A DNA stretch of 64,000 nt from Naegleria gruberi (lineage: Eukaryota): the NCBI GenBank assembly GCA_000004985.1, contig GG738905.1, one strand, 5' to 3'. The notes under the pieces were generated by a model, which saw only the letters and a program-made list of their open reading frames with translations, searched no databases and had not been told where the DNA came from. A program made the position numbers and the translations under genes. Shown piece by piece: positions 6,303 to 60,678 of the stretch. The number at the start of each line of letters is the position of its first letter. The first letter of the stretch is position 1.

Positions 6303-6375
6303 GCCCCGCTAGCTCAGTCGGTAGAGCGTTGGACTTTTAATCCAACGGTCGTGGGTTCGAGCCCCACGTGGGGCG
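6303..6375 (+). tRNA. tRNA-Lys (anticodon UUU)
   Basis: 73-nt cloverleaf: acceptor gccccgc/gtggggc, D-arm gctc-agtcggta-gagc, anticodon stem ttgga/tccaa with loop cTTTTaa, T-arm gtggg-ttcgagc-cccac. No intron. Confidence 0.9.
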
Positions 6376-9456: not shown

Positions 9457-9528
9457 TCCCGTGTAGTCCAATGGCTAGGATACCTGGCTTTCACCCAGGA
9501 GGTCCGGGTTCAATTCCCGGCATGGGAG
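9457..9528 (+). tRNA. tRNA-Glu (anticodon UUC)
   Basis: 72-nt cloverleaf: tcccgtg-ta-gtcc-aatggcta-ggat-a-cctgg-cTTTCac-ccagg-aggt-ccggg-ttcaatt-cccgg-catggga-g. Very close to canonical eukaryotic tRNA-Glu. Confidence 0.85.
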
Positions 9529-9628: not shown

Positions 9629-10600
9629 TTACAAAGATGGTTTGATGATTGGCTTTGATGACTTCTTACATGTCTTTCTCTTGATACAAATCTTCTTCTT
9701 AATTGACTTACAACACTTCTTCTTTCCACCAACTAATTTAAATTTCTTACAAATCTTCTTTCCCTTTGAACGTTTCAAGCACTTCTTATAATACTTCTTC
9801 TTGATACATCTTGGAGGAATGACAATTGTCTTGGCACAATACTTCTTCTTTTGATATTTGACACATTTAGAAAGAGTCTTCTTGTGCTTACAGAACTTGA
9901 TAATCTTATGTTTGGCACAGAAGAATTTCTTCTTAATGAGACAACATTTCTTAACTGATTTTCTTTCCTTACAATATTTAACCTTCTTATACTTGGCACA
10001 TTTCTTTGCCCATGAAACAATCTTACACTTTTTAACATATCTACATTTGGAAACCTTCTTATTGTAGGAATCAACAGTGTACTTGTCGCAAACCTTCTTC
10101 TTTTCACATTTTTTGATTGGAACCTTCTTGAATTTCTTACAGACCTTCTTAACACCCTTCTTGAAACACTTGTTAATAATCTTATGTTTGGCACAGTATT
10201 TCTTGTAACCCTTCTTGATGCAAATCTTCTTAGTTCCATAAGAATCACAAACTTTCCAATACTTCTTCTTGGCACAACCAACAATCTTGTATGCATGCAA
10301 GACGCACTTCTTTGTTGGCTTGCTATACTTGTCACATTTGGAATATTTCTTATGTTTGAGACATTTACCAGCACCGACAATGGCATATTGATCACAGACC
10401 TTCTTTTGACCAACGAGCTTGTGTTTTAAACACTTCTTAATCCACTTGTGCTTTAAGCATTTTCTCTTACAAATTCTTGGCTTGTGATACTTGTCAACAA
10501 CGACGACTGGAGGTTTGGCTTGATAGCTGTCACTTGCTTGAACTGAGAGGACTGCAAGTAAAAGTAGAAGTGCAATTGAAAAGATTAGATTTGCTTTCAT
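9629..10600 (-). CDS. Secreted Lys/Cys-rich repetitive protein
   Basis: Predicted signal peptide MKANLIFSIALLLLLAVLSVQA, followed by about 300 aa that are roughly one-third Lys and more than 10% Cys, organised as about 30 degenerate repeats of the type CxKHK / KKCxKxKK. The opposite-strand ORF 9775-10413 (Arg/Ser-rich) is the complement artefact of this gene. Confidence 0.55.
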   Translation of the reverse strand: MKANLIFSIALLLLLAVLSVQASDSYQAKPPVVVVDKYHKPRICKRKCLKHKWIKKCLKHKLVGQKKVCDQYAIVGAGKCLKHKKYSKCDKYSKPTKKCVLHAYKIVGCAKKKYWKVCDSYGTKKICIKKGYKKYCAKHKIINKCFKKGVKKVCKKFKKVPIKKCEKKKVCDKYTVDSYNKKVSKCRYVKKCKIVSWAKKCAKYKKVKYCKERKSVKKCCLIKKKFFCAKHKIIKFCKHKKTLSKCVKYQKKKYCAKTIVIPPRCIKKKYYKKCLKRSKGKKICKKFKLVGGKKKCCKSIKKKICIKRKTCKKSSKPIIKPSL

Positions 10601-11216
10601 TTTTTGTTTTTGTTGGATGGAATAGTTCAATACATGGTGCTAATTTAAACCATTTCGAATAGTTTTTCATTTGGAACAAGCTCAAAAAAGTTGGATGTAA
10701 GGTTCCAAATTTGGATAGAAAACTGATTTCCCTAACCAAACTTCAATTTACTATTCAAATAATATCAACTCATCTTTCCAAAACTATTATCATAATCTCA
10801 AGGACTTGTTCTTCCATGATTTACGACCTTGTACATTTTTTAACTAAGGTATTATAGTAATTTCGAATAATTTGATTATTTATTTGATTCTGTCAATACA
10901 ATGCTTCATTAGGGTGATCAAACTAAAACACCTATTGGGAAAGCTAGGTATCCTAGCCATTGCACTACTTCTTCAAAATGTAACTATTTCATTAAAATAT
11001 CGGTTGTTTTAATATTTGTATCTAAAGTGTTCGATAAGTTTAAAGAAATAGGTCTGATTGTTATCAAACAGTAAAGCACTTGCAAATAATTCTGAAGATT
11101 TTAAAAGGATAGAGGTTGCATTCCTCAAAAACTAATTAATTCTTCTTTGATAATTATTGTAAACTCATACAATCAATTTTAAAATTACAATCAATTCCGA
11201 AAAACAATTAAAAAAA

Positions 11217-13036: not shown

Positions 13037-13277
13037 TTCCTTCTCTAAAAAGTAGTTTATCTGAATGAAAGAATTCAATTTTGATATGAGTTTTCATCCT
13101 CTTCACTATCGCTTTCACTCCAACTAGATGCTTTAATATCTCCTTTGTATCGTTTTGAGTAAATAACAAGGATAGTCGTTCAAAGATTTGTTGAAACCTT
13201 TCACAGTCGACCTTTACATTACTTATCAAACAGTTGACAATACAGTGTAAGATAATCACTGATTGACAAGTTACGGA

Positions 13278-16200
13278 ATGATAAAAAAATACTCATCAAA
13301 TGCACTCTATTTCGCGAATGAAACTTTTAAAAACGATAGAGATGCAATATTAACAGCAGTAAAAGAAAATGAGTTTGTACTCCAATATGCTAATGAAACA
13401 TTGAAGAATGATAGAGAATTTATTTTGGAAGCTGTAAAGATAAATGGAAAAGTACTCCAATACGCGAAGGAAATATTTAAAAGTGATAGGGAAATTGTGT
13501 TGGAAGCTGTTAAAGATGATGGATTAGCACTTGAATATGCCAATGAAATTTTAAAACATGATAGAGAAATTGGATTGGAGGCCGTAAAAGAAAATGCCGA
13601 AGCATTTCTTTATGTAAATAACACATTGAAAAAAGATAGGGGACTTGTATTGAAAGTTGTTAAACAAAATGGAATATTACTTCAATATGCAAATGAATTA
13701 TTGAAAAAGGATAGAGAAATTGTGTTGGAAGCTGTTAAAGATGATGGATTAGCACTTGAATATGCCAATGAAACATTAAAACAAGATAGAGAAATATCTT
13801 TAGAGGCTTCAAAACAAGAATTTTATAGAGGAATTATTTTAGAATCTAATATAAGATATACACCGAATCTTTTTTACGCTTTTAATAATTATATCGAATT
13901 TAAAAATTTGAGAAACGATAGAAAATTTATATTAGAAGCTGTAAAACAAAATGGATTAGCTCTTGAATATGCTAATGAAATAATGAAAAGAGATAGAGAA
14001 ATTGTATTGAAAGCTATTCAAGAAAATGGATTAGCTCTTGAATATGCAAACGAGACATTGAAAAAAGATAGAGAAATTGTGTTGAAAGCTGTAAAACAAA
14101 ATGGATTAGCACTTGAATATGTTAATGAAATAATGAAAAAAGATAGAGAAATTGTATTGAAATCTGTTAAGAAAAATGGAAAGCCGTTTCAATATGCAAA
14201 AGATACTTTGAAAAATGATAGAAAATTTATTTTGGAAGCTGTTCAACACAATAGAGATATATTTTTATATGTAAATGCAATATTGAAAATGGACAGAGGG
14301 TTTATTTTGCAAGTAATCAAAAAAAATAGAGATGTGCTTGAGTGTGCCGATACGAGTTCAGTTTATTACGACACAACCTTAAGTTATTTACTTTGCAATG
14401 ATACAGTTCTGGTTTATTTACTTTCTAAACATAATCCAGAATTATCCAGAAAGTTTTCACCACAATTAACTCAGATTATTGATGAATCCAACAATCTAAA
14501 CGCCAAACTATCCAAAGATGTGATTGAACTATACTCAAAACAGCTCAACTCTGAAAATGATTTGTATTATTGTATTGAATTACCAAATGTAGAGCCAGAC
14601 AAATCGTTAACCCCGCATTGGTTCTCTTTCAAACCAACCTATTCAGTAGAATTTATTGAAAAATTGGTTATATTTCAAATATTGAAAAAAGTACAAGAAA
14701 TGGAACCATCAAATGATATTTTCAACGGTGAAACTACTAACTATAATTTCTTTTGTTTCAAGTTGGATAAACTTCTGGAAGAAACTTTAATTCAACCAAA
14801 AACTGTCAAAGATTTGAGGAATACTGTTGAGAGTATTTCATCTAAATTCGATACATCATTTTACTCCAAAAAGGAAATCAAGTGCATCAGGTATTTTTTC
14901 ATAACATGGACAGAAAGTGACAAATCTTTTACTGACTACAGGAGGATATTGTCAAGATATAACGAAAAACATGGTGATCTGTCAAAAATATTCAAAGCTC
15001 TCAATAGATACTACAAATATTTCAATAAGAATTACGACTTTATTTCAATATTAGGAAACGGTGCAGAAGGGGCTGTTTTCAAAGTATTACACAGAGAAAG
15101 TAGAACGTTGATGGCTATCAAATTCAAATATGAAGTAGAAGATAGCGAAGAATCAACAAATGAAATTATTAACTTATTGAAACGAACAGATATGTGTGGA
15201 AAGATAAAATGTTTTGATTGTGGAATGATTGAAAGACATTTATATTCAGTAATGGAATTGGGAGAAGAATCTCTATCAGATTATATTCAGGCAAATATTG
15301 AAGTTTATAGAAATTCATCCATGATGACTAAAGAGAAATTAATTGAAATCCTGCGAATATTTATGCAAATATTAGAATCTGTTCAGTCCATCCATGATCA
15401 CAACATTTTACATGGAGATTTAGATCCGCAAAATATTGTCAAAGTTGGAGATCAATACAAACTAATTGATTTTGAAACTTCCAAAGTAATCAAGACAGGA
15501 AATTCAATTACAATTGCTCGTGGAAAGTTTGCATACATGTCTCCTGAAGTTTCACATGATAATTACACTGATGACATGTTTAAAAGAAATAATGATTCTA
15601 AATTAGCTCATAACATTGGAAATATTACAATCTCATGTGATATTTTTTCATTGGGATGTATTTTATTGAAATTATTAACACATTGTCCATTACAATTAGA
15701 TGAGCACTTTGTTAATGATTCTGATTTATCAAAATATAAGGATAATTTCATTTATTTCACAACCTATGGAAAGTATTTCTATACGGTTGTAACAACAAGT
15801 GAAGGGGAAACCAAATTACACTATGCCATCGAACAACTGATCAACAAATCAATTGATACAAATTATGGAGTGAACAATATATTAATCAGATGTATTATTA
15901 CAATGATTCAAAGAGATTCTTCCAAAAGATTGTTTTGTTATTCATACAAAACAACTCTTGAGAATGTAATTAAATTTTTGAATGGAGAAATTGAAATATC
16001 AAACATTGAGATGGACATCAAGCAGTATAAGGAAATAAAATCCTTGATGAGTTACTCTCGACTTTTGGAAGAAATCAACAAAGTGAATCAGAGAAATGAT
16101 TTCTTGAATGAAAAAATTAAACATCTTGAAGATGAAAACAACAAATTAAATCAGGAAATCAACAAATTACATCAGAGAAATGACATATTGATGGAAAATA

Positions 16201-16280
16201 ACAAATTGAATCAGGAAAATACAGAATTGCAAGAGAAAATTAAAATATTAGAGGAACAAATTAGAAAACTCCACTTTTAA
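13278..16280 (+). CDS. Repeat-kinase fusion: N-terminal array of ~24-aa DUF4116-like helical repeats, then a Ser/Thr protein kinase domain and a C-terminal coiled coil
   Basis: About 14 tandem copies of ...DREIVLEAVKQNGLALEYANEIMKK.... The kinase has a GNGAEGAVFKV glycine loop, AIK lysine, HDHNILHGDLDPQNIVKV catalytic loop, DFETSK (DFG-like) and MSPE. The C-terminus carries heptad repeats (NEKIKHLEDENNKLNQEINKLHQRNDIL). The first in-frame ATG is at 13278; the track starts upstream at a TTG. Confidence 0.7.
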   Translation: MIKKYSSNALYFANETFKNDRDAILTAVKENEFVLQYANETLKNDREFILEAVKINGKVLQYAKEIFKSDREIVLEAVKDDGLALEYANEILKHDREIGLEAVKENAEAFLYVNNTLKKDRGLVLKVVKQNGILLQYANELLKKDREIVLEAVKDDGLALEYANETLKQDREISLEASKQEFYRGIILESNIRYTPNLFYAFNNYIEFKNLRNDRKFILEAVKQNGLALEYANEIMKRDREIVLKAIQENGLALEYANETLKKDREIVLKAVKQNGLALEYVNEIMKKDREIVLKSVKKNGKPFQYAKDTLKNDRKFILEAVQHNRDIFLYVNAILKMDRGFILQVIKKNRDVLECADTSSVYYDTTLSYLLCNDTVLVYLLSKHNPELSRKFSPQLTQIIDESNNLNAKLSKDVIELYSKQLNSENDLYYCIELPNVEPDKSLTPHWFSFKPTYSVEFIEKLVIFQILKKVQEMEPSNDIFNGETTNYNFFCFKLDKLLEETLIQPKTVKDLRNTVESISSKFDTSFYSKKEIKCIRYFFITWTESDKSFTDYRRILSRYNEKHGDLSKIFKALNRYYKYFNKNYDFISILGNGAEGAVFKVLHRESRTLMAIKFKYEVEDSEESTNEIINLLKRTDMCGKIKCFDCGMIERHLYSVMELGEESLSDYIQANIEVYRNSSMMTKEKLIEILRIFMQILESVQSIHDHNILHGDLDPQNIVKVGDQYKLIDFETSKVIKTGNSITIARGKFAYMSPEVSHDNYTDDMFKRNNDSKLAHNIGNITISCDIFSLGCILLKLLTHCPLQLDEHFVNDSDLSKYKDNFIYFTTYGKYFYTVVTTSEGETKLHYAIEQLINKSIDTNYGVNNILIRCIITMIQRDSSKRLFCYSYKTTLENVIKFLNGEIEISNIEMDIKQYKEIKSLMSYSRLLEEINKVNQRNDFLNEKIKHLEDENNKLNQEINKLHQRNDILMENNKLNQENTELQEKIKILEEQIRKLHF
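13290..14300 (+). repeat. Intragenic tandem repeat of about 72 bp encoding the DUF4116-like units
   Basis: Near-identical DNA stretches, for example gatagagaaattgtgttggaagctgttaaagatgatggattagcacttgaatatgccaatgaa at about 13491 and 13711. This indicates recent homogenisation or expansion. Confidence 0.7.
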
Positions 16281-33764: not shown

Positions 33765-33855
33765 TTGCCGACACCAGGGATCGAACCAGGGACCTTAAGA
33801 TCTTCAAGATTCAATGGCTTATTAGACCAACGCTCTCCCAACTGAGCTATGTCGG
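33765..33855 (-). tRNA. tRNA-Ile(AAU)-like gene carrying an 18-nt insertion in the 3' strand of the anticodon stem (non-canonical intron, or a disrupted gene)
   Basis: The reverse complement is gccgaca-ta-gctc-agttggga-gagc-g-ttggt-cTAATAa-gcca[ttgaatcttgaagatctt]a-aggtc-cctgg-ttcgatc-cctgg-tgtcggc-a. Removing the bracketed 18 nt restores the anticodon stem ttggt/gccaa and a 73-nt cloverleaf matching eukaryotic tRNA-Ile-AAU. The insertion is not at the canonical 37/38 site. Confidence 0.6.
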
Positions 33856-34110
33856 CTTCTTGAAATTTAAGATATTTAATAAGCAATATACTAAGCATCG
33901 TTATATGTCTTTGCTTACTAATTCAACATTTCTCTTTCATAGTCTTCCTTCATTCTTTTAAAGTAGTGTCATTGAGTTCTAAGCTGTCACGTTCCTCACT
34001 TATGTAACACTATGAAATGATTGTAACCTTGGAACTTTAAGTTCCCAATGCAATTTGAAATTAAAATTTACTAATTGTCAGCACTAAACGTTCTCAACCA
34101 ATCAAAAAAA

Positions 34111-38704: not shown

Positions 38705-39472
38705 ATGGTCAATAACAAGAAGAATAACAAGAAAACATCAGCCATTGCTTCCGAAGTTGCTGGATCATCATCAAAACCATCATCAAAGAAGACCACCACA
38801 ACAGCTCCTCCAGCAGCTCCTGTTGCTACAGAAGTAGTAGTTGAAAAAGTAGAAAAAGCCACACCAACAACAACAACAATAGAAAAGAAGCAAACAAAGA
38901 AGGCAACAACAACTAAAACAACACAAGAAAAGAAGAATCCTGATGTTGCTGCTGATAAGAAGAGAAAATTGGATCAAGTTGTTGAAGAACCAGCTAAAAA
39001 GAAGGAAGAAACAAAGTCTTCTGCAGTAGTTGTTGAAAAATCATCAAAGAAACAAAAGAAAGAAACAAAGCCAGCAGTTGTTGTTGAAGAACCAAAGGAA
39101 GAAGAAGAAACTGAAGTTGTTGTTGAAGATGAAAAGGAAGAAAAGAAAAAGAACAAACGTAAGGAAGCCAAAACTGATATTGAAGTCACACTGAGAAAGG
39201 AAGATATTACAATGAGTGAAGAGGAATTTAAAAAGTGTTTCCATGATGCTGTGAAAATATATAGAGGATCCAAACGATGTGTTATTGTGCATTTGAGAGA
39301 TTCCGCTCAATTGGAAAAGTATTTGAGCAAGGAAGGTGAGGATGGTTCATTAATTCCATTGAATAAGAATTTTGTTGAAGTTGGAGGAAAGATTTTTGAA
39401 GTTAAGAGAGCTAAGGTGAAGGATGTTAAGAGAATTGCTAAAAAGAAGGCTGCTTGGGATAGTTTTAAATAA
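38705..39472 (+). CDS. Lys/Glu/Thr-rich low-complexity protein, possibly nucleolar
   Basis: 255-aa ORF with long charged low-complexity tracts (KKKEETKSS, EEEETEVVVEDEKEEKKKNKRKE) and a small ordered C-terminal region. Confidence 0.4.
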   Translation: MVNNKKNNKKTSAIASEVAGSSSKPSSKKTTTTAPPAAPVATEVVVEKVEKATPTTTTIEKKQTKKATTTKTTQEKKNPDVAADKKRKLDQVVEEPAKKKEETKSSAVVVEKSSKKQKKETKPAVVVEEPKEEEETEVVVEDEKEEKKKNKRKEAKTDIEVTLRKEDITMSEEEFKKCFHDAVKIYRGSKRCVIVHLRDSAQLEKYLSKEGEDGSLIPLNKNFVEVGGKIFEVKRAKVKDVKRIAKKKAAWDSFK

Positions 39473-43148: not shown

Positions 43149-44828
43149 ATGACATCTTTTAATGATGTGGAGGATCAAGTTGTCATTTATTTAGATCATC
43201 AAAAAGATGGGAAAATTATCTACTCGGAAACAAATTCTCTTCTCAAGACGAAACTCTTAGCGGAATTAGTACAAAAACGAAACCATATTCAAGATTTGAA
43301 GGAATGTGTAAATTCTGGAGATAACAGTGTGAGAATGATCCTCCTTTCTCACTTTCCGATAATTGATAATCATGATCAAACCTACTTGTTGAATATTTTG
43401 GAGACTTTTAAGGAAGCATTTAAATTTGTTCCACAATCATTGAAGAATGATCGAAATTTTGTTCTGAAATGTTTGGAGGTGAATGGAGAATTATTTAAAG
43501 AGTATGAAATACTCGCGAATTATGTTTATACAGACGAGAGAACAGGGTTTTCATTTATTCGAAAAGCTTTTCAATTAGAAAGTGTCGTGAAACAGTTGGA
43601 TCCAAAGACAATTCTAAGTTTACCCTATAGTCCTTTACAGTATATCATTTCGAATAGAGAATTTTTTATGAAAGCAGTTTCAATCAATCCAACTATATTT
43701 TCATGTGCCTGTAGAACACTAAAGGCAGATGATGAGCTACTATTTGAAGCAGTGAAATATAATAGACAACATTTGAAATTTGCCTCTCTTAAACAGTTGG
43801 AAAATAGAAATTTAATATTTAGAGCTTGTGAAACCAAGGAAAGTAGTAAAATTGGATATTGGAGTTCAGTTTTGACGATTGCTTTGCCATTAGCCAAGTA
43901 TAATCCAGAATTAGCTTTGGAAATAGTGGAGAAAGACCATGAATCTGTTGCATGTGCAATCAAACATTTCAAAAATCACGAGAAAATAATAATGAAAGTA
44001 ATTGAGATAGCTCCATACTTGATATTCAAAGTTATCAAAAGGCAAGAATGGTTTCCAAATATGAAAGAAATTTGTCTATTAGCCCTAAAGAAAGATCCAT
44101 TGATCTACAAATACCTGGGGAGATTTAGATATGATAGGGACATTTTCAAGTTTGCTAGTGATTGTGGTCATATATCTATATCATACTTATATCTGTCACC
44201 TGAAATGCTAGGTGATAAGGTTTTCGCTGTTGGACTTGTAAGAAGTGTAAGTCCATTGTATTTTGAGAGACTTGATGAGAATCTGAAAAGGGATCGTGAT
44301 GTAATCCTAGCTCTTGCTGCACATTTACAAGTACTACAGCAAGAATTTAAAGAGAAGTATTTACCAAATTTAGAGAATGACAAAGAATTTTTATTAGAAG
44401 CAGTGAGAAGGAAGAGAAACGGCTTCTCTATTCTTTCATTCGCCTCAGATGAGTTGAAACAAGATAGAGAACTAATTCTTTCTGACATTAGAAAATGCAA
44501 CAATTTGAATCTAGTTCCTATCCATCTCAGATCAGATCGAGAAATAGTAGAAACTTTTATTAAGAATGTAAATTTATTTCTTTTTGATCCATCAAGTTTT
44601 CCTGATAGTCTATTGGAGGATAGTGAGTTTGTTTGGAGAATGATAGATTTGCGTCCTAATTTGATAAAAAAGTTTCCAAATCATGAATTTTTCAAAGAAA
44701 AGAAAATAATTCTCAAAATGATTTCTAAAAATATTCTCTGTAATGAAATTATTTCAAATGAACTTAGAGAGGACAGGGATATTAAATTGGCATTGATAAA
44801 AATAGGGAATTATCCATTCAAGGAATGA
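43149..44828 (+). CDS. DUF4116-like helical-repeat protein
   Basis: 559-aa ORF with about 10 degenerate repeats of the same type as the 13278 kinase (NDRNFVLKCLEVNGELFKEY, KADDELLFEAVKYNRQHLKFAS, KRDRDVILALAAHLQVL, KQDRELILSDIRKCNNLNL, REDRDIKLALIKIGNYPF). Confidence 0.5.
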   Translation: MTSFNDVEDQVVIYLDHQKDGKIIYSETNSLLKTKLLAELVQKRNHIQDLKECVNSGDNSVRMILLSHFPIIDNHDQTYLLNILETFKEAFKFVPQSLKNDRNFVLKCLEVNGELFKEYEILANYVYTDERTGFSFIRKAFQLESVVKQLDPKTILSLPYSPLQYIISNREFFMKAVSINPTIFSCACRTLKADDELLFEAVKYNRQHLKFASLKQLENRNLIFRACETKESSKIGYWSSVLTIALPLAKYNPELALEIVEKDHESVACAIKHFKNHEKIIMKVIEIAPYLIFKVIKRQEWFPNMKEICLLALKKDPLIYKYLGRFRYDRDIFKFASDCGHISISYLYLSPEMLGDKVFAVGLVRSVSPLYFERLDENLKRDRDVILALAAHLQVLQQEFKEKYLPNLENDKEFLLEAVRRKRNGFSILSFASDELKQDRELILSDIRKCNNLNLVPIHLRSDREIVETFIKNVNLFLFDPSSFPDSLLEDSEFVWRMIDLRPNLIKKFPNHEFFKEKKIILKMISKNILCNEIISNELREDRDIKLALIKIGNYPFKE

Positions 44829-55010: not shown

Positions 55011-58000
55011 ATGTCTAGTTTATGGCCTTCATTGGTGTTGCTGGTTATGTGTTTGATTTCTCTCGTTAGTGTTACTACTTTACATGCACAAGTGAACACA
55101 AAACCAGTTGACTACTCAATTACCACAATTATTGGTACTTCTGGAGATGGAGCAAAGGCACTCAATGTTGGTATTTATGATGGAAGAGGATTGGTTGCAG
55201 ATAATAGAAATGGTAACATTTACTATGCAGATGGATTGAATTCTCAAGTAAGATATTTTGACACTAATGGAATATCACATCTCTTTGCTGGTTCTCCTGC
55301 CTATCAATATGGATCTCCTTCTGATAGTTTAGGTTTTGCCAATGATTCACTGAGTCTTCCATATGGAGCCGCTTTAAATTCAAAGGGAGATGTTTTCATT
55401 GTAGATAGTAGTCAAAATAGAGTGAAGAAGGTATTTTACAATTCAACTATCAATGCATTCAACATGATTACTGTTGCTGGCGGTGGTTCATCATTGGCAA
55501 GTGGCATTCCTGCTCTCTCAGCAACATTTACTGCCCCAAGATGTATTGCTGTTTCACCTGATGATGAAGTTTATGTTTGTGATGCTTTTAATTACTTGAT
55601 CAAAAAGATTGTAAACGATACTATTTACAATGTGATTGGAACTGGCATCAAAGGAAATAGCGTTGATGGAACTCTTGCAAATAATACAAAGATTAGCAGT
55701 CCTAGTAGCATTGCTTTCCATCCAATAACTAAAGAACTATTCTATTCTGACCTACTCGCCAATGTCATTCGCTACATTGCTAGAAATGGATCAGTATATA
55801 CATACGCTTCAATAACTAGTCCTAGGACAATTGTTTTCAATTCAAATGGCGACATGTATGTCAGTATTTCAACAGCCAATCAGATCATCAAAGTTGTGAA
55901 CGGTATAGCAACTGTGATTGCTAATAGTTTGTCTACAAACGGATTCAGTGGTGATGGTGGTAATGCTATAAGCGCTTCATTGAGTTTTCCATTTGGCTTA
56001 GCTATTTATAATAACAGTTTATATATTTCAGATTCTTCGAACTATAGAATTAGAAAAATAGATTTGACCTCTAACATTATTAGCACTGTTGCTGGTGATG
56101 GTTCTAAACAATATTCTGCCAGGTATCCTGGTTATATCTTAGACGTTCCACTCGCCAGTCCACTATCAACATTTTACAATTCACAAACAGATGAATTATT
56201 AATGGTAGATAATAACAGAGTATTGAGACTCAATTCTTTAACAAACTACAAAAATTCTCTAATTGAAAGTATTGCTGGAAATGGGGTGTTAGCTGTAGAT
56301 GTTGATGGTAAATTGGGAAATCAAACTTCTCTCAATTCTGCATGTTCAGTCTTCCAGTCTGAAGCAACAGGAGATATTTATATTGGCACAGTAGGATCAG
56401 TACTAAAACTATCTAAGAGCAATCAATTGGTTTCAACCATTGCTGGAACAATTTCAAAATACACAGGAGATGGTTCCTCTGCAATTCAAGCCCAATTAAA
56501 TGGACCCACTGGTGTTGCCATATCACCAAATGGAGAAGTTTACATATCTGATTCAAGTAATGATGTTATTAGAAAGATTGATACAAATGGTGCTATCTCA
56601 ACTGTTGTTGGATCTAGCTCAGGATTCTTGGATGCATCAGCTCGTAGAGCACAACTTGCAAATCCTATGGGTATTGCTTTTCTGCCTAATGGTGACTTGA
56701 TTATTTCTGATGCTAAGAATAATAGAATTAGAAAATTCAGTATCAGCTCAGGAAATGTTACAACAATTGCTGGAACTGGTTTAACCACGTACAATGGGGA
56801 AGGCCTTGTTGGAGTTGCAACAAATATCAATTACCCTACTGGTATTTGTGTTAACAGTAGTAATTCAGAAATTTTCTTTGCAGGTTTGTTTTACTATTCG
56901 ATTATTTTAACACTTTTTCACAGATACCTTCAATTACAGAATTAGAAAAATAGATTCGACAGGAACTATAAGAACAGTAGTAGGAACAGGTTCCTCATCA
57001 TACACTGCAGATGGACAAAATGGAACATCAACTTCTGTTTCAGCTGTTGGCTTACAGATACATCCAATTACAAGAGAATTGTATTATAGTGATGGAGCTT
57101 TTATTAGAAGAGTTGATTCTAAAGATGGCAAAATCTATACAGTCATTGGTGGTGGAAATACTTATTCAGCACTCAGTTTAGCCAACTCTACATACTTGGG
57201 TATTGTTCGTAATTTTACATTCTCCCCAAATGGAGATATTTATGTGAGCTGTCCTTCTTTTAACGTTATCAAAAAGATGGACTATGGCTCCAACATTGTG
57301 TATAATGTGGTTGGAACTGGTAGTACGGTTCTAACTGGAGATGGACCTGCCTTATCAACTTATTTGTCAAATCCTGGTGGATTGGCTGTAAACACTAATG
57401 GTGAATTGATTTTTGCAGCATCTTCAGGATTATCAAATTATGATGGAATTAAAAAACTTTCTGGTGGAATGGTAGCAACAATAGCAGGTGGAATTGGAGA
57501 TGGTGGACTTGCAATCAGAGCAAACATTGGAAAGGTTTCAGCAATATCAGTTACTGACACTGATATTTATCTTTCAGATCAAGGCAATAACAGAATTAGG
57601 AAGATTTCATTATCGACTGGTATCATTTCTTCAGTTGTTGGTGCTTTTTACAGTACTGATAATGGTGATAATTTGGCTAATCAAACCAACATTAATTTAG
57701 TCAATGATGTGAGAATTAGTACTGGTGAAATAGTATTCACTGATTCTGGACATAATAAGATCAGAAAGACAGATCTGTCCGGAAGAGGTAAAGTGATTAC
57801 AATTGCAGGAAATGGAAGCAGTCAAGCAATAGTTTCAGAAAACGTATTGGCAAGTGAAGCGTATTTGAATAATCCTGGATCAATTGGTTATTTATCAACT
57901 GGTGAACTGATTATTACCGATACTGGAAATAATGTTATTAGAAAGGTTGGTTTGAATGGAAATATTTCATTGATTGCAGGTCAATATTTCCAAAGTGGAT

Positions 58001-59535
58001 TCAATGGAGATTCATCAAATGCCAAGAGTTCATTGTTGAGCAATCCAAAGGGTCTTTCAATTTTGAACGATGGAAGAATTGTATTTGTTGATAGTGGCAA
58101 TTTCAGAGTTCGAATGCTCACACCATATTGTCCACAAGGATACTACTTGACCCAAAACTCCAATGGTCTTGTTTGTAACTTTCTAACCTGTTTTGGAATT
58201 GCAAGCAATGATTCGAAAGTTTGCTCAGGAAATGGCGTTTGCCAATCGTTAGACTCGTGTTTATGTTCAAATGGATATAGTGGTGTCAATTGTAACCTTG
58301 CACCTTGTTTTGGAATTGCCTCTAATATTCCACAAGTATGTTCTGGAAGGGGAGTTTGTCAATCATTGAATAATTGTTCATGTTCAATGGGTTACTATGG
58401 TGTGAATTGCGAATTAAAAGCAGATAACCCTACGATTAATGTGACAACATGCTATGGAATTGATTTCAATAATTCAAACGTTTGTTCAGGAAGAGGAATT
58501 TGCCAATCATTGAATAATTGTTCGTGTTTCACAGGATATTCGGGTTTGAATTGTTCTGGCGTGGTTTCAGATAACTCCAATACGTCTCCAAATTCATCAA
58601 ATTTGACAACTTGTTTTGGCATTGCATTCAATGATTCTACTGTTTGTTCAGGAAGGGGAATTTGCCAATTATTGAATAACTGTTCGTGTTTTTCTGGTTA
58701 TTCAGGATTAAATTGCTCCAAAGATAGTACAAAGAATGATGATAATTCAAATGCAGATTACTGCACTCTGTATCCAAACTCGTATGTTTGCTCTCCTCTC
58801 TCATCCTTTAACACAACCGAAACTCAGATTACCAAAGTTTCAAATATTACTCAATTAGATTCAAAGACCATCCAATTTGCCTCAACTTCAACAATTTCCA
58901 TTTCTTTGCCATCAATCATTTCACAATATCTTCAAAATACTGACACATCACTCAAGAATGATTCAGTTCAAGTTGTCTCCTCAATTGCCGAAAGTAAGAA
59001 TTCAAATAGTGATGCAGCTGTCATTTCATCCATTGTTTCTTTGGTTTTATTGAAATCAAGTTCAAGTGAAAAGATTACAGTTCAAAATCTTGAACAACCA
59101 ATTTCACTATCGTTTGAGAATGTTACTCTAACAGTTTCAAGTATTGATACTTTGAATATTTCATGTGTTTATTATGAGGAGAATTCTAAAGAATGGAAAT
59201 CAGACGGAATGGAAACTGAGATTAAAAATTTAGAAATTCACAACCTTGCAGATGGAAATATCACATTAACACTCTCCATCCTATGTAACACCAATCACTT
59301 GACTTCATTTTCTGTAATTGACCAAAATTACAAGAAGGCAGCCACCAAACCAACACCTCAACCTGCTCAATCAAATCAACCAACCAAGGATGCTGAAATA
59401 CTTCAAGATAATACTGTTTTAATTGGAGCTATTGTAGGCGCAGTTGGAGGAGTATGTGTAATTGCAGTTGTCATCTCAATAATTATTATTGTTGTTTGTT
59501 TATTAAGAAAGAGGAAGAAAGAGGAAATAAATTAA
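55011..59535 (+). CDS. Large type-I membrane protein with an NHL-repeat beta-propeller region, five EGF-like Cys repeats and one TM anchor; 2 exons
   Basis: Signal peptide MSSLWPSLVLLVMCLISLVSV. Many NHL-type repeats follow (PxGIAxxxNGxLYISDxxNNRIRKI, about 20 copies across both exons). Then five EGF-like units (CFGIASNDSKVCSGNGVCQSLDSCLCSNGYSGVNC and variants), a Ser/Thr-rich stalk, the TM helix LIGAIVGAVGGVCVIAVVISIIIIVVCLL and the tail RKRKKEEIN. Exon 1 is 55011-56883 (GTTTGT donor), the 40-nt intron ends TTTTCACAG, and exon 2 is 56924-59535. The total is about 1490 aa. Confidence 0.65.
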
Positions 59536-59622: not shown

Positions 59623-60678
59623 ATGCAAATCTACAACTGCACAACTTCTCATACTGATGATTCACTATTATTACAAATGCACGATGATCAAGATCGGCCT
59701 AATACTGTGCTAATGTTATGTGATATACAACCTCATGATAGAGAACATTTACTTCATAAAGAATTAACCCTCAAATTTAAACAAGCCTCCGATCGTGTTA
59801 TTTTGATTACTAATTCTGTGGAAAGATTTAAAAAACATAGAAAGATTGATGAGAGATTGGTTAGGGACTTGGAATTTGCTTTTAGAGTGGTACAAATTGA
59901 AGGAACAGCACTAAGAAAATTGAGAAATCAAAATAGAAGAGTGGCACTAGCAGCTGTTCAGCAAAATGGAAATGCCTATTCCTATATTAAAGGTCCTTTT
60001 CAGAGGGATTTGGAATGTGTGATGAGTGCTGCTTTAACATGTGGTAATAATATTGCCATGAGAATATTGAATCAGGATACATTATCAGATGAAGAAAGAA
60101 TGGGAGTGATGAAACGATTATTAGATAATAGTAGAGTGAATGTAGTTAGGCTATTTCGATGCATGCCCTCTAGTTGCTTTACAAGCTTGAATTTTTGCAT
60201 AGAATTGCTTCCTAAAGTTAAGAATCATTTGTATGATGTAATGTTTGCTTCATTTTGCAGTGATAGAGACGCCTTATTACAACTATTAAGAAATTGTCAG
60301 ACATTTGATCATGGATTTCCAAATTTTGTGGGTAAAGGGTTATGGGATAAAGAATTGGTTTTAGAGATGGTATCTAGGGACGGTATTTCAATTGAACATA
60401 TACCACGTAACTTACAAGCTGACAGGGATATTATTCTGACAGCTGTGAAAAACGACGGAAGAGCATTGATGTTTGCACATCCTCCACATAATTCTGACTT
60501 TGAAATCGTTACAGAAGCTGTCAAGAGTAATGCAAGAGGGTTTTTTTATGTTGATAATGAATTAAAGTCATCCAAGAAGTTTATTGATATGTGTATGAGA
60601 GAAAATCAAGAAGGATTTAGTTATTTGAGACAATACGATCATGAGGTAGAGAGCGGTTTAAGAAAGTTTGGTTACTAA
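59623..60678 (+). CDS. DUF4116-like helical-repeat protein
   Basis: 351-aa ORF with repeats NQNRRVALAAVQQNGNAYSYIKGPFQRDLECVMSAALT and NLQADRDIILTAVKNDGRALMFAHPPHNSDFEIVTEAVKSNARGFFYVDNELK, of the same type as the 13278 and 43149 genes. Confidence 0.5.
   Translation: MQIYNCTTSHTDDSLLLQMHDDQDRPNTVLMLCDIQPHDREHLLHKELTLKFKQASDRVILITNSVERFKKHRKIDERLVRDLEFAFRVVQIEGTALRKLRNQNRRVALAAVQQNGNAYSYIKGPFQRDLECVMSAALTCGNNIAMRILNQDTLSDEERMGVMKRLLDNSRVNVVRLFRCMPSSCFTSLNFCIELLPKVKNHLYDVMFASFCSDRDALLQLLRNCQTFDHGFPNFVGKGLWDKELVLEMVSRDGISIEHIPRNLQADRDIILTAVKNDGRALMFAHPPHNSDFEIVTEAVKSNARGFFYVDNELKSSKKFIDMCMRENQEGFSYLRQYDHEVESGLRKFGY

Follow-up and report, generated by a model that had tools for sequence, protein, structure and literature searches.

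A minus-strand gene in a 64,000-nucleotide stretch of Naegleria gruberi contig GG738905.1 (referred to below as the window) encodes a secreted-type protein in which almost all cysteines are placed mirror-symmetrically around a short central loop. Comparison of this protein with its relatives predicts that its two halves pair antiparallel as one very long, disulfide-stapled β-hairpin, which may serve as a structural rod outside the cell. The gene lies in an uninterrupted open reading frame (ORF) that extends from 9629 to 10630 in the ORF list, with the first ATG at 10600 and the stop codon TAA at 9629–9631; the coding sequence is intronless and the product has 323 residues. Read from the sequence, residues 1–22 (MKANLIFSIALLLLLAVLSVQA) are organised like a typical signal peptide, with n, h and c regions, V-Q-A at −3 to −1 and a cut before SD, in agreement with an earlier reading made from the DNA letters alone (the sequence-only reading), which had described a secreted protein that is about one-third lysine and more than 10% cysteine. 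Its account of the composition held as well. The mature part of 301 residues (35.4 kDa) contains 106 lysines (35.2%) and 32 cysteines (10.6%), and with 113 lysines plus arginines and only nine aspartates plus glutamates its net charge is about +104 at pH 7. There are no N-glycosylation sequons in the mature protein.

A mirror-symmetric cysteine ladder

Splitting the mature protein at every cysteine yields 32 units with a modal length of nine residues. The gap between successive cysteines is exactly nine in 14 of 31 cases, compared with a mean of 1.4 and a maximum of seven in 20,000 shuffles, and falls between eight and 12 in 24 of the 31 (6.1 in shuffles), so that the cysteine periodicity that the sequence-only reading had proposed to count is clearly present. 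The repeat is a degenerate 9-mer in which lysine prevails at positions −2, +2 and +4 relative to the cysteine. About 30 short CxKHK/KKCxK repeats had been described; the literal motifs are rarer (five CxKHK, 12 CxKxK and eight KKC). No tandem repeat was found at the DNA level in the gene. The repeats are therefore old and degenerate, and a recent minisatellite expansion was ruled out.

The mirror arrangement was assessed in two ways, by pairing cysteines at positions i and j with a constant sum (i+j) and by correlating the unit lengths of the two arms; the constant-sum pairing is independent of AlphaFold2. In the window protein, 15 pairs (30 of the 32 cysteines) have sums of 353–357, from 171/186, 165/192 and 154/201 next to the centre to 48/305 and 44/311 at the far ends, and the only cysteines left out are the second members of two CC doublets. 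Permutation of the spacings reached 15 pairs in two of 500 trials. Constant-sum pairing was also found in six relatives from our profile search (P0003, P0009, P0022, P0007, P0018 and P0015; see below), with 14–16 pairs and an own constant in each. Moreover, in seven family members the successive units of arm 1 vary in length together with their mirrored counterparts on arm 2 (r = 0.84–0.99), and this correlation is lost (about 0) when the register is shifted by one to three units. The irregular units vary from one subfamily to another but keep their match: the window protein has 12/12, P0003 9/9 and the Naegleria fowleri proteins 17/18, proteins of the NAEGRDRAFT_66117 type have 32/30 and 22/22, and P0015 has 13/13 and 11/11. 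P0003 lacks an ‘LVG’ at exactly mirrored sites of both arms, and in the antiparallel layout the irregular units containing glycine or proline oppose each other (LVGQKK and KLVGGKKK, CDKYSKPTKK and CAKTIVIPPR). Such co-varying insertions and deletions argue, on evolutionary grounds, for antiparallel pairing of the two halves. A direct repeat of the halves, as expected from a domain duplication, was rejected since it leaves the mirrored irregular units unexplained; translational matches between the halves are trivially high because of the nine-residue period.

An AlphaFold2 model of the window protein, built on the 17-sequence family alignment, has a mean predicted local distance difference test score (pLDDT) of 79 and a predicted template modelling score (pTM) of 0.25. 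Averaged over ten-residue blocks, pLDDT is at least 89 at about residues 81–150 and 201–280, with values of up to 93 in arm 1, and it exceeds 90 for the greater part of residues 80–170 and 200–280. DSSP assigns near-continuous strand to residues 47–174 and 183–309; residues 175–182 between the arms are non-strand and poorly ordered, and pLDDT drops below 50 only at 180–182 in the tip loop. In a second AlphaFold2 model, of the Naegleria lovaniensis protein P0007 with its large insertions, the strands, the internal loops (155–168 and 282–301) and the tip loop are symmetric, and the symmetry centre is the one predicted from the cysteine sum of 453 of this protein. The antiparallel pairing of the halves is most simply read as a hairpin within one molecule, predicted to have arms of about 125 residues and about 15 disulfide rungs; extended at 3.3–3.4 Å per residue, it would make a rod of about 40 nm. 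The many disulfides postulated in the sequence-only reading are thereby supported in a more specific form, namely mirror-symmetric cysteines and a predicted hairpin with about 15 cross-strand cysteine pairs. A structural search returned only weak, non-significant matches to the pore stems of lysenin, aerolysin and anthrax protective antigen (PA), which are themselves very long two-stranded β-hairpins and in this respect resemble the predicted fold.

Several observations weigh against an intramolecular hairpin and would favour the alternative that it is an AlphaFold2 artefact, the protein being instead disordered, a solenoid, a chain joined by intermolecular disulfides or an antiparallel dimer. 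The hairpin was predicted from only 17 aligned sequences, a shallow basis, and with the low pTM given above. Shuffled sequences still give 12.2 ± 0.9 cysteine pairs compared with the 15 observed, a null value that is high because the periodicity of the cysteines inflates mirror matches, and the mirror pairing of P0003 (18 of 500 trials) and P0015 (81 of 500) is not significant when each is taken alone. Antiparallel pairing between two molecules fits the mirror symmetry equally well. Furthermore, an odd period of nine in an ideal ribbon makes the rungs alternate between non-hydrogen-bonded and hydrogen-bonded registry and between the two faces. Such a period is unfavourable for cross-strand disulfides, and therefore some irregularity must exist or some of the rungs are not intramolecular. 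On the other hand, irregular lengths as well as insertions and deletions co-vary at mirrored positions in seven proteins and do not do so in shifted pairings, a solenoid requires translational but not mirror symmetry, and the P0007 model, despite its insertions, has its symmetry centre where the cysteines of this protein place it. On this evidence, which we weighed separately from the functional readings discussed below, we regard an artefact as unlikely, although a substantial doubt stays attached to the fold.

Coding evidence and organisation of the gene

The gene is real in the lysine/cysteine-rich frame. Homologous proteins match this frame only (tblastn, E values from 1e-90 to 1e-110). 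L001 is a full-length environmental ortholog on a Logan contig from another Naegleria (SRR32051688, positions 290–1264), which shares 77% amino-acid and 79% nucleotide identity with the window gene and its product. The differences between the two genes number 49, 38 and 110 at codon positions 1, 2 and 3, and the ratio of non-synonymous to synonymous substitution rates (dN/dS, Nei–Gojobori method) is 0.15. Cysteines are kept at 30 of the 31 aligned positions; the exception is Cys297, which belongs to a CC doublet and stays unpaired in the mirror scheme. Judged by these substitutions, the gene is under purifying selection. L001 holds one in-frame TGA at the codon matching Gly108 of the window protein, which splits it into two called genes; the codon may reflect an error in sequencing, the site may be polymorphic, or the gene may recently have become a pseudogene.

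Codon usage sets the gene apart from its surroundings. Compared with a background of 15 other ORFs in the window, AAG makes up 74% of its lysine codons (32% in the background), and the G+C content at third codon positions is 0.44 (0.23–0.35 in the background); ATA is used for none of the 24 isoleucines, and neither GTA nor GTG occurs among the 25 valine codons. This is the pattern expected for a highly expressed gene, and the codon bias indicates that the gene is probably highly expressed.

The sequence-only reading had pointed to an Arg/Ser-rich ORF at 9775–10413 on the opposite strand as a possible real gene. This frame is indeed open over 212 codons, but it turned out to lie on the same strand as the lysine/cysteine-rich frame, shifted by +1, and to start with TTG. 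tblastn found no homologs in it, the matching frame of L001 is interrupted by stops, and both the excess of third-position substitutions and the dN/dS of 0.15 belong to the lysine/cysteine frame. Its richness in arginine and serine comes about because AAG AAG is read as AGA AGx. That this ORF is the real product, or that the region is non-coding low-complexity DNA, has hardly any probability. Two metagenomic proteins of 250 residues from ENA, P0011 and P0021, open as family members with a signal peptide, VDSY and a cysteine ladder, and after ‘CLGHG’ become rich in arginine, serine, valine and asparagine, resembling the shadow frame of the window gene; the switch probably stems from a frameshift or from an intron that was missed. 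The shadow frame of AAG-rich family genes therefore tends to stay open.

The segments of the gene and the overlapping frame are listed in Table 1. An N-terminal architecture like that of the window protein is found in P0001, P0003, P0005, P0009, P0022, P0007 and P0018. D-x-Y motifs (VDSY, DTYKP, PDPYAPP, DKY) occur in the N-terminal tail and the tip loop of all six full-length members examined and in the C-terminal tail of three of the six, among them the N. fowleri protein FDP41_004030 with four IDSYKP repeats there; D-x-Y is also present in the symmetric internal loops of P0007. Therefore, both ends of the predicted rods as well as their joints bear Tyr/Lys/Pro motifs.

Table 1. Segments of the cysteine-ladder gene and its shadow frame (positions in the window)
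Feature	Position	Strand	Basis and remarks
Complete intronless coding sequence	9629..10600	-	ORF list, tblastn, dN/dS; 323 codons + TAA
Signal peptide, residues 1–22 MKANLIFSIALLLLLAVLSVQA	10535..10600	-	Read from sequence
N-terminal tail, residues 23–43 SDSYQAKPPVVVVDKYHKPRI	10472..10534	-	Two D-x-Y motifs; low-confidence, unstructured in model
Arm 1 of predicted hairpin, residues 44–171	10088..10471	-	15 Cys; AlphaFold2 strands, Cys mirror pairing
Tip loop, residues 172–185 DKYTVDSYNKKVSK	10046..10087	-	Two D-x-Y motifs; centre of Cys mirror symmetry
Arm 2 of predicted hairpin, residues 186–311	9668..10045	-	17 Cys: 15 mirror partners and the second Cys of two CC doublets (220, 297)
C-terminal tail, residues 312–323 KKSSKPIIKPSL	9632..9667	-	
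Arg/Ser-rich 212-codon ORF	9775..10413	-	+1 frame, same strand; TTG start; frame shadow, not a gene

A family apparently restricted to Naegleria

The nearest database proteins are ‘predicted proteins’ of N. gruberi. A profile search of 1.84 billion representative proteins gave 17 hits, of which all but two belong to the same family, and all named family hits are from Naegleria. P0013 and P0014 were discarded as unrelated tandem-repeat translations. P0013, a protein of 539 residues from an ENA contig, consists of about 25 tandem copies of the 11-residue CDRHKLIGAGH followed by a region that reads as carrying a methyltransferase-like motif; it matched the family profile via the motif CDQYAIVGAGKC and is probably an unrelated minisatellite translation. 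In N. gruberi the family comprises NAEGRDRAFT_76199 (P0002), NAEGRDRAFT_67458 (P0003), NAEGRDRAFT_66117 and NAEGRDRAFT_57793 (P0024), in N. fowleri FDP41_004030 and FDP41_008345, and in N. lovaniensis C9374_009239; further members are soil, metagenome and Logan fragments. To judge from these sequences, the family is apparently restricted to Naegleria.

We define the Naegleria Cys-ladder family by a signal peptide, about 10% cysteine with a modal spacing of nine residues, and cysteines that are mirror-symmetric about a Cys-free central loop, features that are all present in the window protein. The cysteine content of about 10% and the nine-residue modal spacing are found throughout the family. 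In contrast, the lysine content of the full-length window protein (33%) is the highest of all, compared with 12–28% in the other members. The cysteine ladder is the only part conserved across the family, while charge varies. Four subfamilies are visible, and the paralogous subfamilies are old and spread over three Naegleria species. In one of them, formed by P0024, P0017 and P0023, an extra N-terminal region of about 370 residues consists of about seven 4-Cys modules of approximately 38 residues that often start with ‘CP’ and have no Pfam match; the ladder domain of these three proteins is much less basic.

Among the paralogs, NAEGRDRAFT_67458 with its 301 residues is full-length and 46% identical to the window protein (tblastn E = 1.7e-90, profile E = 3.9e-144). 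NAEGRDRAFT_76199 corresponds to residues ~172–323 of the window protein and differs from it at only four positions where the homology is clear. By its sequence, the window comes from N. gruberi or from something very close to it, and its allele differs from the reference one. The N-terminal 293 residues of this model are a SAM/PB1 protein that is missing from the window, and the N-terminal half of the window protein is missing from the model. Because its SAM/PB1 part (residues 1–293) is absent from the window, the model looks chimeric; it is probably chimeric or cut by a contig problem, with 9629–10087 as the corresponding region of the window. The ORF of the window, which starts at an ATG of its own and has a signal peptide, seems to show the gene structure correctly.

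The sequence-only reading knew of no well-characterised family with this architecture, and our searches agree: the window protein is without a Pfam hit, a sequence relative in the PDB or a significant structural analogue. No Pfam family was detected at E ≤ 1 for the window protein or for P0003, P0007, P0009, P0018, P0022 and P0024, and the family profile has no PDB sequence relatives at E ≤ 1. Known Cys-rich repeat domains (granulin, EGF and the Dictyostelium Cys-rich repeats) likewise had no Pfam match in the window protein or in the six homologs. No contigs were returned when the window protein, P0001, P0002, P0003 and a neighbouring ORF of 486 residues were looked up by exact sequence. The genes are already present in databases as hypothetical proteins only, and we found no description of the family, of the mirror ladder of cysteines or of the fold. 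A predicted tryptic digest of the mature protein gives 109 peptides, only seven of which have at least seven residues, and standard trypsin-based proteomics would therefore tend to miss the protein. This poor tryptic coverage may be one reason why it stayed unnoticed; the peptides SDSYQAKPPVVVVDK and YTVDSYNK could mark it in non-tryptic proteomics.

Possible functions

Among the functional options we rank a matrix or wall component first and propose, tentatively and at somewhat less than even confidence, that the product is an abundant, polycationic, disulfide-laddered structural or cement rod protein of about 40 nm that acts outside the cell, most plausibly in the cyst wall. Both its localisation and its wall or matrix function are inferred. 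After removal of the signal peptide, the protein would fold in the oxidising secretory pathway, where the mature chain would form a single, very long two-stranded antiparallel β-hairpin in which about 15 disulfides between the strands, one per nine residues, would tie the two arms together in a ‘cystine ladder’. The resulting rod would bear about 100 net positive charges from the lysines flanking each cysteine and flexible D-x-Y/Pro/Lys motifs at both ends, in the N-terminal tail and the tip loop. Along its length, a stiff polycationic rod of this kind may attach to glycans of the wall or to other polyanions, and the Tyr/Lys motifs could join one rod to the end of the next. It is a matter of speculation that the rung spacing of nine residues (about 30 Å) matches three sugar-dimer repeats of cellulose or chitin.

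A structural role would be in line with the rod-like shape of the models, with a scaffold that is conserved while charge varies, and with the presence of D-x-Y motifs in each segment outside the ladder. It would also agree with an old, apparently genus-restricted family of multiple paralogs under purifying rather than diversifying selection, and with the codon bias, which suggests abundance. By analogy, it is further supported by the Cys-rich families of the Acanthamoeba cyst wall, whose most abundant proteins belong to genus-specific, signal-peptide-bearing, Cys-rich multi-gene families, next to a laccase (PMC6541295). Some of the Acanthamoeba cyst-wall lectins carry Thr/Lys/His- or Thr/Lys/Cys-rich segments, and Leo, Jonah and Luke of Acanthamoeba as well as Jacob of Entamoeba occur in abundance as structural proteins that cover the glycans of the wall (PMC6541295). 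The Naegleria family has in common with amoebal cyst-wall lectins the signal peptide, the Cys-rich repeats and the organisation in genus-confined families with many paralogs. However, Leo and Jacob consist of compact 8-Cys or 6-Cys domains, whereas the Naegleria family has a continuous nine-residue cysteine ladder, and Pfam and profile searches detected no homology to 8-Cys, CBM49, CAA or 6-Cys chitin-binding domains.

Other observations count against a wall or matrix function. No carbohydrate-binding domain was detected in the protein, and its extreme cationicity would be equally expected of an antimicrobial. The preference for AAG, on which the argument for abundance draws, may owe something to the avoidance of poly(A) tracts. 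Furthermore, the family identifiers and UniProt accessions are absent from the searchable literature, and the identifiers are also absent from the searched supplements of a N. fowleri cyst/trophozoite RNA-seq study, a 2025 PLoS Pathogens multi-omics study and a 2024 EMBO Reports study of N. gruberi. In the literature searched, we found no Naegleria cyst-wall proteome and no usable stage-resolved expression table; a pangenome paper describes the stage-specific expression data for this genus as very limited (PMC9928731).

The main rival is a secreted or phagosomal polycation that kills prey or microbes by binding anionic bacterial envelopes, in the manner of a giant stapled β-hairpin peptide. 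Naegleria is a bacterivore, and the signal peptide, the charge of about +104 and the predicted disulfide-stapled hairpin would all suit such a role. Protegrin, tachyplesin, gomesin and RTD-1, the last with the cystine ladder of the θ-defensins, are cationic antiparallel hairpins with cross-strand disulfide rungs, as is predicted for the window protein. A single hairpin closed by cysteine pairs, which characterises the β-hairpin antimicrobial peptides (PMC13001179), is what AlphaFold2 predicts here, and the mirrored cysteines and co-varying arm lengths support the prediction. However, there is no sequence relationship, and in length, charge and arginine content the window protein lies outside this class: the peptides have 11–25 residues, one to three disulfides, charges of +1 to +8 and an enrichment in arginine (PMC13001179), whereas the window protein has 301 residues, about 15 predicted rungs nine residues apart, about +104 charges and a basic character that comes from lysine (106 lysines, seven arginines). 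Moreover, the protein lacks a global amphipathic face: lysine and cysteine fall on even positions with a parity that flips every nine residues. A dN/dS of 0.15 and a long scaffold that is deeply conserved in much less basic paralogs (12–20% lysine) are atypical for host-defence peptides, and processing sites that could release small peptides are missing. We therefore consider an antimicrobial or prey-killing function unlikely.

A second rival is a surface adhesive or coat protein of the amoebae or flagellates, a Lys/Tyr-rich ‘glue’ for attachment or for coating of the cell, whose chemistry can be likened to that of mussel foot proteins or of extensin-type Tyr-Lys-Pro proteins. The content of 35% lysine and 6% tyrosine, the motifs of the D-x-Y-K-P type at the rod ends and the repetition of IDSYKP in FDP41_004030 are compatible with it. 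However, these motifs are few in the window protein, a membrane anchor is lacking, and a 3,4-dihydroxyphenylalanine (DOPA) chemistry or a tyrosinase partner is unsupported, which makes an adhesive improbable. The sequence-only reading had also listed a metal-binding protein among the plausible roles. A metallothionein-like function of the cysteines and histidines would draw on the 10.6% cysteine and the recurrent C-x-K-H-K motifs, but the window protein contains no CxC or CxxC and only two CC, 28 of its residues are aromatic, its cysteines are evenly spaced and mirror-paired, and its signal peptide implies an oxidising compartment. Metal binding is thus very improbable.

Returning to the structural rod, we regard the protein, by analogy, as an extreme and regular variant both of disulfide-stapled cationic hairpins and of the lineage-specific Cys-rich wall proteins of amoebae. 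The bolder view, that it represents a previously undescribed architecture in which a core-less hairpin with more than 120 residues per arm forms a rod of about 40 nm with about 15 disulfides and Tyr-containing end joints, used as a polycationic building block of the cyst wall or another matrix, is one that we advance with more doubt than belief.

Genomic surroundings

The window is AT-rich (about 32% G+C) and carries typical eukaryotic signalling genes, several of them for DUF4116 proteins; among its genes are those for an F-box-like protein, a short-chain dehydrogenase, a kinase with DUF4116, CorA and an S9 peptidase. The ladder gene is the single K/C-rich gene in the 64 kb, and no tandem paralogs of it were found there. 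Both in the window and around the paralog P0023, the genomic context is uninformative on function. A convergent tRNA-Glu(UUC) gene at 9457–9528 (+) lies about 100 bp past the stop codon of the ladder gene, and other tRNA genes are located at 6303, 16388, 33766 and 45030; the one for tRNA-Ile(AAU) at 33766–33856 contains an intron, as its length of 91 nt implies. DUF4116-repeat genes lie at 13263–16280, 43149–44828 and 59623–60678 (all +), in one case as a fusion with a protein kinase domain. Two adjoining genes at 55011–59535 (+) for NHL-repeat and teneurin-like EGF proteins are unrelated to the ladder gene, and the local richness in cysteine of the gene at 57079–59535 is due to its EGF repeats. 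A further Cys-rich frame of 85 codons at 38786–39040 (−; 20% cysteine) was rejected as the antisense shadow of a low-complexity stretch in the plus-strand ORF 38705–39472.

Implications

The literature searched turned up no cyst-wall proteins of Naegleria. If the prediction is true, no known cystine-ladder hairpin would come near the window protein in length, and nature would offer in it a core-less protein rod stapled by disulfides, of interest for protein design and biomaterials. Moreover, the family would, if the proposed role is true, provide a first molecular handle on the extracellular or wall proteins of the genus Naegleria, to which the lethal N. fowleri with its two homologs belongs.

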